DNA from: a virus
Lineage: Duplodnaviria > Caudoviricetes
Strand: one strand, 5' to 3'
Length of the DNA stretch: 34,038 nucleotides
Virus record (IMG/VR): IMGVR_UViG_3300032312_000083
Coordinates: 1-34,038 of that record
Part shown: in pieces, positions 7,214 through 33,521 of the stretch
Position numbering within the stretch: the stretch's first letter is position 1
Layout: every line of letters begins with the position of its first letter
Notes under the pieces: generated by a model
Seen by the model: only the letters and a program-made list of their open reading frames with translations
Told to the model about the DNA's origin: nothing
Databases searched by the model: none
Translations under genes and position numbers: made by a program

Positions 7214-7545
7214 TGAGAGCGCATATTGTTGAAAACGGTGTTGTTACAAACACCATCGAAGTTGATAGCTTGGACGCAATACCGAACTCGATAGAGGCCA
7301 ATATCGGTGGAATCGGTTGGCTTTGGGACGGGGAAAATCTTACCCCACCCGCACCAGATACCGAAGCGCAATGGGCTGTTGTCCGCGTTGAACGTAACAA
7401 GCTGTTGGCTGAATCCGATTGGACGCAGTTACCTGACGCACCTGTAGACGCTGCTGCATGGGCTACATATCGTCAAGCCTTACGCGATGTAACTACTCAA
7501 ACTGATCCGTTTGCTATCGTCTGGCCCGAAAGACCATCATCATGA
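7213..7545 (+). CDS. Tail fibre assembly chaperone
   Basis: RNKLLAESDWTQLPDAP...WATYRQALRDV...WP signature; TAATG-coupled to the fibre gene. Confidence 0.88.
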   Translation: MRAHIVENGVVTNTIEVDSLDAIPNSIEANIGGIGWLWDGENLTPPAPDTEAQWAVVRVERNKLLAESDWTQLPDAPVDAAAWATYRQALRDVTTQTDPFAIVWPERPSS

Positions 7546-7904
7546 AATGCGCTGACTTCGTAGGCACATTGTTTCTCGCGCGCGATGTAGCCCATTCGAC
7601 GCACCTGAACACACGCAGCTTTGCCAAACACTCTGCATTGAACACTTTTTATGATGAAGTGATCGAATTGGCTGACAAATTTGCTGAAGCCTACCAAGGC
7701 AAATATGGCCTAATCGGTCCTATTTCGCTTATGTCAGCTAAGAAGACAAACAATATTGTTGCGTTTCTTGAAGGTCAGGTAGACGAACTTGAGGAAATGC
7801 GGTATAAAGTCGTTGATAAGGATTGCACTCCGATCCAAAACATTATCGACGAGATTTTTGGGTTGTATTACTCAACCTTGTACAAACTTAAATTTCTCGC
7901 ATAA
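7542..7904 (+). CDS. Dps/ferritin-like four-helix protein (DUF5856-like)
   Basis: H-x2-H-x8-H-x6-Y-x7-D-x2-AE pattern resembling Dps ferroxidase ligands; ends YKLKFL. Confidence 0.75.
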   Translation: MKCADFVGTLFLARDVAHSTHLNTRSFAKHSALNTFYDEVIELADKFAEAYQGKYGLIGPISLMSAKKTNNIVAFLEGQVDELEEMRYKVVDKDCTPIQNIIDEIFGLYYSTLYKLKFLA

Positions 7905-26761: not shown

Positions 26762-26767
26762 GCAAGA

Positions 26768-26827
26768 AGGCTACTACAAAATTTTTTGCATTTCAAGGCT
26801 TGCATCAAATTTTGTTGTGTGTATGGT
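26768..26827. promoter_or_regulatory. Back-to-back promoters of the replication module
   Basis: Minus strand TTGAAA(26796-26791)-17-TAGCCT(26773-26768); plus strand TTGCAT(26800-26805)-16-TATGGT(26822-26827). Confidence 0.55.
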
Positions 26828-26857
26828 GGGGGTCCAAACAGTAAAGTGAGGTACATT

Positions 26858-27979
26858 ATGCAACATAGTAAGATAGTCGGCGGCTCGACCGCCAAGCGCG
26901 TCATAGCCTGCCCCGGCAGCGTGGCGCTGGTGGATACCATGCCGCCAAAGCCCAGCAGCAGCTACGCCGACGAAGGCACGCTCCTGCACGACAGCATTGC
27001 AACTATACTAGAACGCGACGTTGACCCATACCGCTTGGTTGGTCTGCGTTACGAAGATGTAGAGTTGACCGAAGCGTTAATTGAGGACAAGCTGATACCG
27101 GCGCTGCGCGCGCTGGACGAAATAGACCCGCAGGGGGAGATGGAATATGCTGTTGAAAGCCGGGTTGGTTTTGGTGATTTTCTGCCTGACGTTTTTGGTT
27201 CTACCGATCTTCTTGGTCGCCTTGGTGATCGAGCGATTGTTTTGGATTGGAAGTTTGGTGACGGGGTGGCTGTTGAAGCCATCGAAAACGCCCAATTACT
27301 CTTCTACGCTGCGGCTGCTAAACGCACGGCGGAAACGGCGTGGGCTTTCGACGGAGCCAAAGAAGTAGAACTAATCATTGTCCAGCCGCCGTTTGTTAAG
27401 CGGTGGGTGACAACGCTAGACCGCGTCGATGCGTTTGAGAAAGAACTTGCCGCTGCCATCAAGATTGCTATGCGCCCTGACGCGCCGCTGGCATCCGGCG
27501 ACCATTGCAAGTGGTGCGCGGCCAAGCCTGTCTGCCCTGTCATGACCGGCGCTGTAGACCGTGCGCTGAAAGTCAAGGTCGATGCGCTGCCAATGGATCA
27601 GATAGCACACTATCTGGAACAGGCGCCGTTGGTCGAGGCGTTCATCAAAGACTTGCAGCAGTTGGCGCATGGGCTTCTGGAAGACGGACATAAAGTCCCC
27701 GGATGGAAGCTGGTCAACAAACGTGCAACACGGCAGTGGACAAACGAGGATAAAGCTGTAGCTTTCATGTCCGCTGCTGGTGTAGAAGCATGGGCTGACC
27801 CTAAGCCCTTGTCGCCTGCACAAGCAGAAAAGGCTTTGAAGAAAGCCAAGATAGAATTGCCAGCGGACTTAGTTGTCGCTGTCTCCAGTGGCTCTACCCT
27901 TGCGCCGGAAAGTGATTCCCGGCCAGCGGTTTTGCAAATCGGACAGATGCTTACCAAAGCTATGTCTAAAATACAGTAA
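26858..27979 (+). CDS. Cas4-like PD-(D/E)xK exonuclease (DUF2800-like)
   Basis: CPGS, EGTLLH, FGSTD, LDWKFG, QL..YA, HCKWCAAKPVC; SD GAGG before ATG 26858. Confidence 0.88.
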   Translation: MQHSKIVGGSTAKRVIACPGSVALVDTMPPKPSSSYADEGTLLHDSIATILERDVDPYRLVGLRYEDVELTEALIEDKLIPALRALDEIDPQGEMEYAVESRVGFGDFLPDVFGSTDLLGRLGDRAIVLDWKFGDGVAVEAIENAQLLFYAAAAKRTAETAWAFDGAKEVELIIVQPPFVKRWVTTLDRVDAFEKELAAAIKIAMRPDAPLASGDHCKWCAAKPVCPVMTGAVDRALKVKVDALPMDQIAHYLEQAPLVEAFIKDLQQLAHGLLEDGHKVPGWKLVNKRATRQWTNEDKAVAFMSAAGVEAWADPKPLSPAQAEKALKKAKIELPADLVVAVSSGSTLAPESDSRPAVLQIGQMLTKAMSKIQ

Positions 27980-28665: not shown

Positions 28666-28706
28666 GCGAAAGCCGGGGCGACATCCACCCCGCCCCGGCA
28701 AGTAGC
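28666..28706 (+). promoter_or_regulatory. Structured RNA element upstream of the polymerase gene (9-bp stem on a loop-E/bulged-G-like motif)
   Basis: GC-GAAA-GCCGGGGCG-(10 nt)-CGCCCCGGC-AAGTA-GC; no U-tract. Confidence 0.6.
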
Positions 28707-28724
28707 GGAAGAGTGAGAACTTCT

Positions 28725-30680
28725 ATGTCTAAATTATGGATTGACTTTGAAACGCGCAGCCGGTGCGACTTACGCAGCCGCGGCGTTTACAATTACGCGC
28801 AGGACGCCAGCACCGACGTGTTGTGTATGTCATACGCATTTGATGACGAAAATGTGCGGACGTGGCTACCCGGTGAGCCTTTCCCGCAGGACGTCCGCGA
28901 CCACACAGGGCTAGTCTACGCGCACAACGCAGCGTTCGAGCGCCTGATATTCTGGTATGTCCTTCAGGTAAACTTTAAGCTGGAGCAGTTTTATTGCACC
29001 GCAGCACAAGCCCGCGCCAACTGCGCGCCGGGCAGCCTTGAGGATGTGGGCCGCTTCGCTGGCGCGACCATGAAGAAAGACCACCGCGGCGGACAACTGA
29101 TCCGCGCGCTGTCCATCCCGCAATCAGACGGCACGTTTCGCCAAGACGCGAAGCTGATGCAGGAGATGGTTGACTATTGCGAACAGGATGTGCGGGCCAT
29201 GCGGGCCATCACGCTGGCGCAGCGTCCGCTGTCGGCTGAAGAATTGGCTGACTATCATGTCAACGAGCGCATCAACGACCGCGGCGTGTTGCTTGACCGG
29301 CCATTGGCGCTGGCAGCGGTGCGCTACGCCGAAGCTGAATTGGCAGAGATACAGACCATTGTCGCAGAAGTGACGCACGGCGAGATTAAGTCCGTCCGCA
29401 GCCCAAAGATGAAGGATTGGGTATTGGCTAGGGTAGGGCCGCAAGCCCTTGAACTAGCTACGGTTTACAAAGACGGGGTAGCTAGGCTATCCATTGACAA
29501 GAACGTGCGCGCTAATCTGCTCACGTTAGCGGGGGAGAATGCAGATGAAGTGCCGTCGGAAGTTGCGGAAGTCATCCAGTGCGCGGACGATCTGTGGGCA
29601 TCGTCCGTCGCTAAGTTCCAACGCGCCGCAGCTCTTGCTGACGCGGAAGATTATAAGGTTAGAGGAGCATTTGTGTTTGCTGGAGGGAGTGCTACTGGCC
29701 GTGCTTCGTCATATGGACTACAAGTTCACAATTTCCCAAGAAAGTGTGCCGGAAACCCGGCATTAGTTAGGCAGGCTATGGTCCGCGGACACAGGATTGT
29801 CCCCGACCATGGCGCCCGCGTGACTGACGTGCTGAAAGGTATGCTGCGCCCTGCGCTGATGGCCGGCAAAGGCAAGCGCCTTGTCGTTGCTGACTGGGCC
29901 GCAATCGAAGCGCGCGTCACGCCGTGGGCATCTAACAGCACCTTTGGCGGACGCAAGCTGGACATCTTTGCCAAAGGCGAAGACGTTTACAAGCATAACG
30001 CTATGGCGACCTTCCATGTCGGCTATGATGACGTTGACAAAGACCAGCGCCAGATTGGCAAGGTGCAAGAGTTAGCCTGCGGCTTTGCAGGCGGCGTCGG
30101 CGCGTTCGCCAGCATGGGCCGCATCTACGGCTTGGTCATGTCAGAGAGCGACGCCAAGCGCATGGTTGACGCATGGCGCAGGGCTAACCAGTGGGCCGTG
30201 CCTTACTGGTCTGGCCTTGAAGAAACTTATATGCGCGCTATGCGGAACAAAGGACGTGAGTTCACTGTTGGCCGCGTTACATATTTATTTGATGGACTGC
30301 ATCTTTGGTATGCCCTTCCGTCTGGCCGTGTGTTATGTTACCCTTTCGCCCGTTTCAACGAGAAAGGCGACCTGACCTACGCGAAGGCTTCTTGGAAGCC
30401 AGCCGCCGACGCGAAGGAGTGGCCGAGGGCGCGGCTGTGGCGTGGTCTGGCGTGTGAGAACATCACGCAGGCTATCGCTAACGACTTGCTGCGCCACGCC
30501 TTGCGACAGTTGGACGATGTAGTCTTACACATCCACGATGAAATAGTCTTGGAAGTGCCGGAAGCAGATGCAGAGGCCGCAGCAGCGCGGCTGGTGCAGA
30601 TTATGTGTGAGCCGCCATCATGGGCAACAGGGCTACCCCTGAACGCTGAAGTGGCAGTTATGGAACGTTATGGAAAATAA
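28725..30680 (+). CDS. polA: Family A DNA polymerase with 3'-5' exonuclease
   Basis: Exo DFET and HNAAFE; motif A DWAAIEAR, motif B RQIGKVQELACGF, motif C HIHDE. Confidence 0.95.
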   Translation: MSKLWIDFETRSRCDLRSRGVYNYAQDASTDVLCMSYAFDDENVRTWLPGEPFPQDVRDHTGLVYAHNAAFERLIFWYVLQVNFKLEQFYCTAAQARANCAPGSLEDVGRFAGATMKKDHRGGQLIRALSIPQSDGTFRQDAKLMQEMVDYCEQDVRAMRAITLAQRPLSAEELADYHVNERINDRGVLLDRPLALAAVRYAEAELAEIQTIVAEVTHGEIKSVRSPKMKDWVLARVGPQALELATVYKDGVARLSIDKNVRANLLTLAGENADEVPSEVAEVIQCADDLWASSVAKFQRAAALADAEDYKVRGAFVFAGGSATGRASSYGLQVHNFPRKCAGNPALVRQAMVRGHRIVPDHGARVTDVLKGMLRPALMAGKGKRLVVADWAAIEARVTPWASNSTFGGRKLDIFAKGEDVYKHNAMATFHVGYDDVDKDQRQIGKVQELACGFAGGVGAFASMGRIYGLVMSESDAKRMVDAWRRANQWAVPYWSGLEETYMRAMRNKGREFTVGRVTYLFDGLHLWYALPSGRVLCYPFARFNEKGDLTYAKASWKPAADAKEWPRARLWRGLACENITQAIANDLLRHALRQLDDVVLHIHDEIVLEVPEADAEAAAARLVQIMCEPPSWATGLPLNAEVAVMERYGK

Positions 30681-30690
30681 GGAGCAAGCG

Positions 30691-33036
30691 ATGAGTGAGA
30701 GTCGCACGAAGTTCATAGACTATATAGTCGGGTTGGCCGCTGATACAGTGGGCGAAACGGCTTTGTTAGTGCGTCAGAAGCCCGTGCATGGCGATGACGG
30801 CAAACCAATCTATCACGCAGACGGCGCGCCAAAGGCGACGTTCCCTGCGTTCCTGCCTGAAAAGGCCCGCATCAAGGACGGCGAGGCATGGTATGTCAAC
30901 ACTGGCTCGTTCGTTGTTGACCGCTTTGTAGATGGCAAGCCCGCTGCCAAGTCCAGCAACGTCGAATATGTCCTGTTCATGATGCTAGATGATATCGGCA
31001 CTAAGTCCAAGACGCCGCCGCTTGCGCCGACATGGATACTGGAAACCAGCGAAGGTTCGTTCCAATGGGGCTATGCGTTCAACGAGCAGCCAAAGAAGGG
31101 CGACTTCTGCGCTGCCGTCAAAGCTATCGCAGCCGCTGGCTACACCGACCCCGGCGCGACCAACGCTGTCCGCAACTGTCGCATTCCCGGCAGTGTCAAC
31201 CTAAAAAGCGGGCGCGGTAATTTCCCTGCGCGGCTGGTCGAGTTCCACCCAGAACGTGAATACACAATAGAACAAATCTGCGAAGCGTTAGGCGTCACAC
31301 CCGAAGAAGGCGACACAGCCGACTTTAGGACTGTGCAACTGCGCGACACTGGGCATGACAACGTCCTGACATGGTTAAGCGAAAACAACCTAGTCCTTAG
31401 CGCACCTAACAACGACGGCTGGTGCGGCATCGTCTGCCCTAACCACGCCCACCACAGCGATGGCATGATCGAGGCGCGTTACAAGCCGCTCGACCGTTCG
31501 TTCTGCTGCTATCATGGACACTGCCAAGACCTTGACAGCCGCACGTTCCTTGATTGGGTTGCCGCTAACGGTGGGCCACAGGCAACGCCGGGCTTGCGGG
31601 ATGAACTAATCGCAGAGCGCATGGCGTCGATGATGGATAAGATTTCCCCTACGGAAGCTTTTCCTGACGAAGCCGCAGCGCGTGTGCGTGAGGTCGAAAA
31701 GAAAGAAGCAGGACGGCTGGAACAAAGCGAGTGGTTCGAGCGTTTCGCTTACATACAGTCTGATGACTGCTATTTCGACATGGTCACACGTCAAGAGATA
31801 GCCCGTAACGTCTTTAACGCCTTGTTTCGTCACGTTGACTGTCGCTCCATCCACAAGAAGACACAGCGCATCCAAGCGTCCGTCTACTACGACGAGCGTC
31901 GGCAGGACCGTGGCGCACCTGCGCTGGCAGCCGTGACGTTTGCCGCCGGTGATGACGTGCTGGTAACGCGCGACGGCTTGGTCTATGGTAACAGGTGGAC
32001 AAACGCCCGCCCTGACGTGTCAGAAAGCGACAAGATTGCCGACCATGACGTCGAGCCTTGGCTTGAGCATTGCCGCAATCTAATTAAAGATGACAGGGAC
32101 TTGGACCACATCCTAAACGCTATGGCGTTCAAGATACAGAACCCACGCGTCAAGATTAACCACGCCATCCTGATTGGCGGCGACGAAGGCGCGGGCAAGG
32201 ATACCATCTTTCAGCCGTTCCTGTGGGCGCTGGGCGGCGGCAACTGGCGCAACAGGTCAGTCATCGAAGCTGGCGGGCTGGACAGTCAGTGGGGCTACGC
32301 GCTGGAAGCTGAAGTTGTCATCTTGAACGAGTTAAAGGAGCCAGAGGCGCGTGAACGTCGGGCCATGGCTAACAAGCTGAAACCCATGATTGCTGCACCG
32401 CCTGAAACGCTGTCGGTCAACCGCAAGGGTATGCACCCTTACGAGTTGGTCAACCGCCTCATGGTGCTTGCCTACACGAACGACTCGCTGCCCATCACGC
32501 TGCCCACACAAGACCGTCGTTGGTTCTGTGTGTGGACACACGCGCCGCGCATGACAACGCCAGCAGCCGACGCGCTGTGGGGCTGGTATGAGACAGGCGG
32601 TTATGAAAAGTGTGCCGCATGGCTGCATCAGCGCGACGTGTCATCGTTCAATCCATCTGCGCCGCCGCCAGTGACCGAATGGAAGCTGAACATGGTCGAG
32701 CATGGCATGAGCGTAGCAGAAAGCTATCTGGTCGAGTTGATGCGGAACAAGGCGGCGGTGTTTGCCAATGGCGTCATTGGTGGTCCGTTCCACCGTATTT
32801 GCGACGCGCTGGCTATCAACGTGCCTGCGGGCGTAAAGATACCACCCGCTGCGTTACTTCATGCGCTGAAAGAGGCAGGCTGGGTTGACATAGGTCGCGT
32901 CCATTCTGTCGAACACCCGACAAAGAAACACATTTTTGCCGCGCCGGACGTCATTAAAAAGAACAGCAAGTCAGAATTGCGCCGCATGGCAGAAGAACTG
33001 CCGAAGATAAATATACCCGGTGTAAGCAAGAATTGA
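30691..33036 (+). CDS. Primase-helicase (RepB-like AEP primase, Zn finger, SF3 helicase)
   Basis: MLDD, ETSEGSFQWGY, RIPG; CPNHAHH...CYHGHC; Walker A GDEGAGKD, ILNE, DRRW; SD AAGGAG before ATG 30691. Confidence 0.9.
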   Translation: MSESRTKFIDYIVGLAADTVGETALLVRQKPVHGDDGKPIYHADGAPKATFPAFLPEKARIKDGEAWYVNTGSFVVDRFVDGKPAAKSSNVEYVLFMMLDDIGTKSKTPPLAPTWILETSEGSFQWGYAFNEQPKKGDFCAAVKAIAAAGYTDPGATNAVRNCRIPGSVNLKSGRGNFPARLVEFHPEREYTIEQICEALGVTPEEGDTADFRTVQLRDTGHDNVLTWLSENNLVLSAPNNDGWCGIVCPNHAHHSDGMIEARYKPLDRSFCCYHGHCQDLDSRTFLDWVAANGGPQATPGLRDELIAERMASMMDKISPTEAFPDEAAARVREVEKKEAGRLEQSEWFERFAYIQSDDCYFDMVTRQEIARNVFNALFRHVDCRSIHKKTQRIQASVYYDERRQDRGAPALAAVTFAAGDDVLVTRDGLVYGNRWTNARPDVSESDKIADHDVEPWLEHCRNLIKDDRDLDHILNAMAFKIQNPRVKINHAILIGGDEGAGKDTIFQPFLWALGGGNWRNRSVIEAGGLDSQWGYALEAEVVILNELKEPEARERRAMANKLKPMIAAPPETLSVNRKGMHPYELVNRLMVLAYTNDSLPITLPTQDRRWFCVWTHAPRMTTPAADALWGWYETGGYEKCAAWLHQRDVSSFNPSAPPPVTEWKLNMVEHGMSVAESYLVELMRNKAAVFANGVIGGPFHRICDALAINVPAGVKIPPAALLHALKEAGWVDIGRVHSVEHPTKKHIFAAPDVIKKNSKSELRRMAEELPKINIPGVSKN

Positions 33037-33062
33037 CAACTGATATCACGCGATGATATACT
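33033..33062 (+). promoter_or_regulatory. Near-consensus sigma70 promoter driving a small RNA
   Basis: TTGACA(33033-33038)-18-TATACT(33057-33062) with extended -10 TG; no ORF downstream on this strand. Confidence 0.8.
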
Positions 33063-33066
33063 GCTT

Positions 33067-33133
33067 GGGTTAGTAATGCTCTACTGACCCTTTTGGAAAG
33101 CCCCCGGTGTCTCACTCCACCGGGGGCTTTTTG
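33067..33133 (+). ncRNA. Putative ~66-nt two-hairpin antisense small RNA
   Basis: Promoter; hairpin 1 GGGTTAGTA-ATGCTC-TACTGACCC; hairpin 2 AAAGCCCCCGGTG-TCTCACTC-CACCGGGGGCTTT plus U-tract; loops complementary to several translation-initiation regions. Confidence 0.75.
33097..33133 (+). terminator. Rho-independent terminator (possibly bidirectional)
   Basis: 13-bp perfect stem followed by TTTTTGTTGTTT, between convergent genes. Confidence 0.85.
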
Positions 33134-33137
33134 TTGT

Positions 33138-33431
33138 TTACGCTGCTAGTTTGCGTTTGCCGGGTAACACTACCAAGCGGGTGTTGACTTTGGTTATGGG
33201 GTGTTCGTCTTGCTTATCCCCGTGCATACCTTCGTCATCCCAATGGACATCATCGTTGCCAGTAACATCCCAGACGTTGACATAAATCTCAGCGCCCTTC
33301 ATGTTAAAAATCTGACCCCAATCGTTCTTTACTTGCCTTACGACACTGGCGATGGCTTTTTCTGGATCAGGGTTTCTGGCCCAGCTTGATCCGCCGCCGA
33401 GTAAAACGATAGCTATGTAGTCGTGTGTCAT
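33138..33431 (-). CDS. Hypothetical early protein, 97 aa
   Basis: SD AAAGGA; own consensus promoter; no recognisable domain. Confidence 0.8.
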   Translation of the reverse strand: MTHDYIAIVLLGGGSSWARNPDPEKAIASVVRQVKNDWGQIFNMKGAEIYVNVWDVTGNDDVHWDDEGMHGDKQDEHPITKVNTRLVVLPGKRKLAA

Positions 33432-33452
33432 GCTCTACTTTCCTTTTATCAA

Positions 33453-33521
33453 TGTCAAAGAACCATCAAGGCGGTTTCCCGTCTTGATGGCTCATTATAG
33501 CATAGTTTGAGGGTATGTCAA
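33453..33521 (-). promoter_or_regulatory. Strong sigma70 promoter with a boxB/boxA-like leader
   Basis: TTGACA(33521-33516)-16-TATAAT(33499-33494) with TGn; GAAA-capped hairpin 33490-33463; GGTTCTTTGACA at 33464-33453. Confidence 0.75.

Follow-up and report, generated by a model that had tools for sequence, protein, structure and literature searches.

A conserved two-hairpin small RNA predicted behind the primase gene of a P22-like phage, with loops complementary to phage translation starts

The locus described here raises the question of whether the DNA immediately behind the primase gene of a tailed phage encodes a small RNA directed at the phage's own replication genes and, if so, what such an RNA might do. 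The sequence analyzed (the window, 34,038 nucleotides in full) is a 34-kb virus record with a tool-estimated completeness of 91%. Family searches identify P22-like virion genes (portal, scaffold, coat and ejection) and a replication arm made up of a helicase, a VRR-NUC gene, a DUF2800 exonuclease, a probable single-strand-binding (SSB) gene (named from its position and the annotation of a syntenic gene), a DNA polymerase and a RepB-primase/DUF5906 helicase. A gene of the Dps/ferritin-like "starvation-inducible" family (phrog_858) lies among the virion genes at bp 7542-7904. The endolysin is closest to those of phages of Caulobacter (72%) and Sphingopyxis (68%).

The original prediction described a phage with no visible repressor or integrase, and this was borne out by family search: no integrase, repressor or partition families were found among the 44 proteins of the window or in 84 of the 92 unassigned ORFs of three complete relatives. 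As most of the small ORFs match no family, a small repressor could be hidden among them. Related DNA was drawn from freshwater metagenome runs. Protein-level scans (IMG/VR four times, GTDB once) gave 337 primase loci, 324 of them with DNA past the primase stop codon and 227 distinct. From GTDB came five short, inconsistently labelled bin contigs, among which no integrated copy was clear as judged from the contigs alone. The features discussed below are collected in Table 1.

Table 1. Positions of the genes, RNA elements and complementary sites considered in the window
Feature	Position (bp)	Strand	Basis
DUF2800 / PD-(D/E)XK exonuclease	26858..27979	+	Family matches
DNA polymerase	28725..30680	+	Family match
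Primase-helicase (RepB primase and DUF5906)	30691..33036	+	Family matches
Promoter of the RNA, sigma70-type, overlapping the primase stop codon	33033..33062	+	11/12 consensus, TTGACA-18-TATACT with TG
Predicted small RNA, ~68 nt, two hairpins	33068..33135	+	Fold, covariation; no ORF on + strand
Hairpin 1; loop 1 AUGCUC at 33076-33081, which with the 3' stem strand forms seed 1	33068..33089	+	Fold, covariation
Hairpin 2, intrinsic terminator; loop UCUCACUC at 33110-33117 is seed 2	33095..33135	+	Fold, conservation
Seed-2 target across primase codons 1-4 (ATG 30691)	30693..30700	+	Exact 8-mer
Seed-2 target at polymerase ribosome-binding site (ATG 28725)	28711..28718	+	Exact 8-mer
Partial seed-2 target at exonuclease ribosome-binding site (ATG 26858)	26845..26851	+	7-nt pairing
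Primase Shine-Dalgarno GGAGCA, weaker seed-1 site	30681..30686	+	Complementarity to loop 1
Seed-1 target over ribosome-binding site and start codon of 97-aa ORF	33430..33439	-	Exact 10-mer complement
97-aa ORF, swappable cargo behind a fixed leader	33138..33431	-	Four homologous clusters, no family
Promoter of the 97-aa ORF cassette, 12/12 consensus	33494..33521	-	Promoter scan

The RNA unit and its conservation

A near-consensus promoter followed by two hairpins without an ORF had been proposed for this locus, and both were recovered in place. The 5' end of the RNA is set by the position of the promoter. The predicted fold of bp 33068-33136 has an energy of -37.4 kcal/mol (z -7.15), a value reached by none of 200 shuffles. 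The suggested Rfam/Infernal search returned no family for the RNA in the window or in its relatives; the NsiR1 model (RF02399) scored 25.2 bits against a gathering threshold of 39 (E-value: 0.54), a score driven by the terminator. A dyad in the promoter spacer was rejected as a general feature, being confined to one common allele type. In one metatranscriptome run, a 256-nt contig spans the terminator and extends past it on both sides; as contigs show neither ends nor strand, nothing follows from it on transcription.

Across the relatives, the unit lies directly behind the primase gene. A terminator with a CUCAC loop is found in 118 of the 227 distinct loci: in all 70 loci with a primase identity of at least 84% (counting L006, missed by the regular expression and plain on inspection) and in 48 of the 51 loci at 66-83%, the other three having a changed version. 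Below 66% identity, 104 of 106 loci have no RNA and two (L213 and L272) carry a divergent element. Of 121 loci, 118 share one seed, the most divergent having a primase identity of 68%; the CTCAC core is present in all 118, and the loop-1 core GCUCC/GCUCU is kept in most of the clade. Among promoters from 70 loci, 43 distinct ones were compared; conservation is 100% at TTGAC and the TG..TA positions and 42-77% at most spacer positions. In the 68-73% identity group, a promoter-like sequence lies inside the 3' end of the primase gene.

The stems were aligned for the window and 32 sequences from the clade with at least 84% identity, leaving out mid-identity and 11 three-module sequences. In these 33 distinct two-hairpin sequences, 99.7% of the cells are paired, and changes on both sides are seen at 10 of the 22 pairs, which exceeds all 500 shuffles and all slid controls. 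With a covariance model derived from this alignment, the mid-identity members were recovered, as was the L279 clade (E-value: 2.5e-4), and the distant loci were not. In the distant loci and five distant genomes searched it gave no convincing match (best E-values: 0.026-0.04 for the plain terminators of L092 and L104, and 0.035 for L213), and it detected no further copy within the window. When viral contigs were scanned with a loose pattern (6 of 64 parts), 120 loci came up, mostly by chance; the RNA is present in 10 of these, nine behind the same primase and one on a contig cut too short to tell. Searching the locus against GenBank phages with blastn gave three weak unrelated matches, and MW202483, with a short CTGACCC motif behind its primase and no covariance-model match, was rejected as a homolog. 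Judged by its sequence conservation, the unit is a real conserved RNA element of a new family, and it is likely transcribed by the host RNA polymerase as a discrete ~68-nt product.

Several variants were seen in relatives. A three-module RNA with a tandem extra hairpin unit occurs at L003:9402-9488 and in 10 other distinct sequences, and its extra loop pairs over 10-11 bp (with one bulge) with the primase leader in five of the six tested. In the L163-L178 and L188 subclade, VRR-NUC/helicase is relocated downstream of the RNA and loop 1 is different and C-rich; no target of this loop was found in that group. Behind the primase stop codon, L092, L099, L101-L104 and L110 have hairpin-2-like terminator stems whose loops are long and different, and they lack hairpin 1; L128, L143, L148, L201-L208 and L229 have short tandem repeats instead of the RNA, a possible replication origin.

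Complementary sites at phage gene starts

Loop 2 had been predicted to be complementary to an 8-mer at the polymerase Shine-Dalgarno and the primase start, and both exact matches are present. Counted against a shuffled background, GAGTGAGA occurs three times in the window (these two sites and the loop itself) with 0.48 expected, and three occurrences were reached in 1 of 100 shuffles. It is the only 8-mer common to two of the six replication-gene start regions. The seeds are short in the window (7-8 nt), and the claim that such matches are unlikely by chance held: none of 4000 random 8-mers pairs as well as the loop with the best three of the six replication starts, and the real loop 2 ranks first among 280 permutations of its letters. 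Similarly, none of 150 loop shuffles matches its pairing in the window.

The proposed IntaRNA-type comparison was run with accessibility-aware energies from an IntaRNA-like script (with one of the 35 start positions mis-set), and the top five of the 35 window starts were primase (-10.8 kcal/mol), polymerase (-7.7), the 97-aa ORF (-5.0), exonuclease (-3.8) and VRR-NUC (-2.8). The 10-nt pairing claimed for the exonuclease (bp 26845-26854) needs an opened terminator stem, so the accessible match is 7 nt, and a partial site is what stands of it. The VRR-NUC start, also named as a target, has a central mismatch in addition to its low energy and was given up; among loci with the RNA, GTGAG is found at 1 of 78 VRR and 0 of 77 SSB starts, and neither the start regions of relatives nor the pairing energies support VRR-NUC, SSB or helicase as targets. 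Loop 1 does have a weaker site at the primase Shine-Dalgarno, as suggested, which varies among relatives without a matching loop change; its best partner lies at the convergent 97-aa ORF, whose start holds the one 10-mer in the rest of the window that is exactly complementary to the RNA.

In the relatives, GTGAG was scored within -25 to +15 of gene starts. It is present at 98 of 98 primase starts where the RNA has a CUCAC loop and at 2 of 93 where the RNA is absent. For the start of the polymerase block, the corresponding counts are 87/87 and 0/66; the motif is at the polymerase start itself in 66 of the 87, and in all of the other 21 (21/21) an inserted gene precedes the polymerase and has the motif at its own start, behind the same leader. 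Half of the exonuclease starts in loci with the RNA have the motif (33/66, compared with 0/46 in loci without it), so that this site has been lost in half of the loci without a loop change. Primase codons 2-5 are synonymously invariant and make up four of only nine such columns among 377 (96 primase genes), which indicates that the constraint acts on RNA and not only on protein. In a midpoint-rooted primase tree of 85 thinned sequences, the CUCAC phages form one clade, so that the joint presence of RNA and sites represents a single event on the tree. Taken together, these comparisons point to primase and polymerase as firm targets and to the exonuclease as a partial one; VRR-NUC is unsupported and small leftward genes are added to the predicted set.

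Two intergenic regions of the replication arm have features of their own. Ahead of the polymerase gene, a GC-rich hairpin without a U tract is followed by a conserved AGTAGC leader (bp 28672-28710). The AGTAG part persists in distant relatives without the RNA, some of which have a C-rich stretch at the Shine-Dalgarno position, and the leader is a hotspot for gene insertion. Between the VRR-NUC and exonuclease genes (bp 26762-26857) lies a divergent promoter region with an inverted repeat (ACAAAATTT..TGCA / TGCA..AAATTTTGT) and A/T tracts, both kept down to 59% primase identity; the repeat is possibly a protein-binding site.

The 97-aa ORF is part of a moron-like cassette (bp 33138-33521, minus strand) carried by a minority of relatives, in which a fixed promoter, a leader hairpin (bp 33463-33490) and a ribosome-binding site precede varying ORFs. 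Its protein matched no family, and its Atlas matches were below 0.9. Loop 1 and the cassette site correspond as U/A in the window and L020 and as C/G in L012, L014, L017, L030, L046, L057 and L257, and L297 has a third exact form of the match. Only these 10 of 118 loci show the cassette site, and nine loci that share the window's loop 1 are without it in the DNA examined.

A wider set of sites was found among the small opposite-strand genes, whose "early" status is assigned from their position. Across 12 RNA-bearing records (11 of them near-complete, the window among these, and one partial; G008 has an inverted layout), seed complements are present at 38 of 209 small opposite-strand starts versus 1 of 168 structural starts. 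The counts in five records without the RNA are 4 of 82 and 0 of 58, and the Fisher p of 0.003 between the groups is nominal, as the genomes are not independent and the ORF starts come from a heuristic caller. CA and TG directly after GGAG complement loops 1 and 2, respectively. Of 85 small opposite-strand starts, 26 have CA and 9 have TG at this position; of 24 structural starts, one has CA and none has TG. Since structural genes are free of the motifs in RNA-less phages as well, the sparing of late genes is not specific. In record G006, the leftward small-gene operon also contains a type II hammerhead ribozyme at gathering score (L348:9292-9364, minus strand); no hammerhead core was found in the window.

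Joint changes of loop and target, and proposed action

Alignment of related loci, proposed as a check for co-variation, points to loop and target having switched together in three lineages (the L279 clade, L194 and L213), with L272 as an exception that does not fit. L279, L326 and L327 are nested in the CUCAC clade, and their terminator loop is down to 4 nt. The primase, the polymerase leader and the exonuclease have all lost GTGAG. Pairing is instead between a newly acquired UUUCCCCU loop and an equally new primase ribosome-binding site, AGGGGAAA, with ranks of 1/41 and 1/35 of starts; for L326, support from shuffling is modest (2/150) and the match to the polymerase is 5 nt long. In L194, where the primase start is no longer M-S-E, the site has moved out of the coding region into the ribosome-binding site, and the changed loop pairs over 11 bp with this relocated site (rank 1/30; shuffles 0/150). 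L213, a sister lineage, has an unrelated 5' seed that pairs over 13, 11 and 8 bp with the primase, polymerase and exonuclease starts, respectively (ranks 1, 3 and 8 of 33 starts; shuffles 0/150). The GAUGUUU terminator loop of L213 and L272 was considered as the seed and rejected, as the energies point to the 5' single-stranded part. L272, the sister of L213, has no start that its own RNA fits (the primase ranks 27/27), and the L213 RNA fits the L272 starts well; the L272 RNA may have decayed or recombined. The matrix of cognate and non-cognate pairings is block-diagonal.

We consider it very probable, from these patterns of complementarity, that the RNA pairs with these phage starts. Its exposed loops would nucleate duplexes of 7-11 bp over the Shine-Dalgarno or start codon, possibly with the help of Hfq, and occlude the ribosome; blocking of initiation at this position is an established mode of trans-encoded sRNAs in the portion consulted of a review (PMC12197685). 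Translation of the primase, the polymerase and the small early genes would be blocked and virion genes would be spared, and the genes behind the polymerase leader (inserted genes and polymerase) would follow by translational coupling. As the RNA builds up with time and genome copy number, it would turn down replisome and early proteins and free ribosomes for late genes, giving an early-to-late handover or a copy limit in the lytic cycle. One further idea is that leftward read-through across the unit could produce a full antisense sponge.

To this reading as a whole, a lytic brake on replisome and early genes, we assign a probability of roughly 0.55. It is favoured by the lack of integrase, repressor or partition families among the window proteins and the 84 unassigned ORFs of relatives, by the recovery of only five short GTDB contigs and by the retention of one seed over wide distances; the constitutive-looking promoter counts against it, as the delay of the brake would be left unaccounted for. 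The trans-acting, multi-target repressor of the original prediction is upheld by the comparative tests (promoter, stems, loop, targets only where the RNA is present, and three switches), with a different target set and with repression itself still predicted. A broader proposal, which we hold tentatively, is that one modular RNA with interchangeable seeds would serve as a protein-free master switch. Ribosome-binding sites of replisome and early genes would be shaped for joint silencing, seeds and sites re-coded in step would give specificity groups, and, with neither a repressor nor an integrase, the RNA alone would decide between replication and assembly or between dormancy and lysis.

Other explanations can be offered for the same data. 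Immunity after the manner of P4 CI and P1 C4 formed part of the original prediction and found no support, with no sign of a temperate life style and no match to the C4 family. As a rival it would have an RNA-only immunity factor hold the phage dormant, as a carrier or plasmid-like element, and block superinfecting relatives, the seed switches being immunity types. A strong, constitutive-looking promoter, targets that are the genes to silence in dormancy and the block-diagonal matrix would all suit such a factor, as would the silencing of P4 replication genes through CI RNA described in the available text of PMC4825925. We nevertheless think it rather unlikely, given that integrase, repressor and partition genes were not found, that no clear integrated copy was seen in GTDB and that one seed in 118/121 loci would, we infer, be slow evolution for an immunity determinant. 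It is improbable that the element acts in cis, with the terminator hairpin of an exo-SSB-pol-primase mRNA folding back on, or being processed from, its own transcript as feedback. The unit is always directly behind the primase, the hairpin doubles as the operon terminator, and all seed-2 replication targets are upstream on the same strand, which agrees with this; on the other hand, the -35 and -10 are conserved despite a variable spacer, and targets on the opposite strand are out of reach in cis.

Still less probable is a generic, cuckoo-like anti-Shine-Dalgarno RNA aimed mainly at host mRNAs, with the phage matches as side effects. The two loops share a CUCC ending and are similar to the CCUCCUCCC loop of cuckoo as given in the consulted sections of PMC4615179, and the nearest endolysins are from phages of Caulobacter and Sphingopyxis; yet the phage sites change with the loops and are absent where the RNA is absent, and host targets may exist in addition. 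We regard it as very improbable that the loop of an ordinary terminator matches these starts by coincidence, or that the motif is bound by a protein as DNA. Coincidence would draw on the short motifs and on L272, against which stand the chance tests, the joint presence, the synonymous invariance, the stem covariation and the joint switches, and a DNA site is opposed by the placement of the motif, which invariably occurs in the loop, reversed, and at translation starts rather than promoters.

Comparison with known RNA systems

No published description of the RNA was found in a literature search. The loop motif and four sample identifiers are absent from four supplements of a survey of 10,000 candidate viral RNAs (PMC10690425), whose other files may list it. 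The phage antisense regulators covered in the part of a review consulted (PMC12197685) have a single operon or host genes as their targets and come mostly from temperate phages. The single short RNA described here appears to reach many of the phage's genes by way of ribosome-binding-site motifs that they share, with primase and polymerase as direct targets, and its natural seed swaps are ready-made specificity tests. If the proposal is correct, phages without a repressor, an integrase or their own RNA polymerase can order their programme by RNA, and the unit would be a compact, programmable two-seed scaffold.

The P4 CI RNA, as presented in the text available from PMC4825925, pairs with separate sites (seqA/seqC) in phage transcripts and shuts off phage replication genes. 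The likeness extends to a small phage RNA, sites in the phage's own transcripts and replication genes as targets, here predicted. P4 CI is, within the same text, processed from the target leader and acts through premature transcription termination in the lysogen. The RNA described here is preceded by a promoter of its own that lies downstream of the operon and whose conservation argues against processing. Its sites are the ribosome-binding sites and start codons of several genes, which lie as far as 6 kb away and on either strand, in a phage in which no lysogeny genes were found.

Seed and target of c4 reportedly changed together between phages P1 and P7, and our RNA likewise appears as a trans-acting phage RNA with loop seeds that co-vary with phage mRNA sites, in this case computationally. 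In the accessible portion of PMC8201110, c4 of P1/P7 controls an antirepressor operon within the C1-repressor circuit. Unlike c4, the RNA lies behind the primase and not in an icd/ant antirepressor leader, with no antirepressor, repressor or integrase family found; it has two hairpins only and would target replisome and early genes directly. The Rfam C4 model (RF01695) had no match in the window at an E-value of up to 1 and none in seven related sources at gathering score.

In architecture, the closest parallels are with the cuckoo, CcsR and NfeR1 (ar14-type) sRNAs of Alphaproteobacteria, which in the sections seen of PMC4615179 have two or more adjacent hairpins, variable covarying stems and anti-Shine-Dalgarno-like loops. 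The 2-4 adjacent hairpins and variable stems are shared on this description, with a third module in some relatives of our phage; the loops differ, being (U/C)CUCACUCC and GCUCC here rather than CCUCCUCCC in every loop. Our RNA is also phage-encoded, has a terminator as its second hairpin and matches no Rfam family. A regulatory terminator loop is known from E. coli SdsR, RseX and ArrS, in which, according to the text available (PMC11979758), it is used to regulate fepA "likely without base-pairing"; the loop described here differs in that it covaries with complementary targets. By analogy, then, the RNA would act like P4 CI and P1 C4 and is built like the cuckoo RNAs, and it appears to depart from defining features of each.
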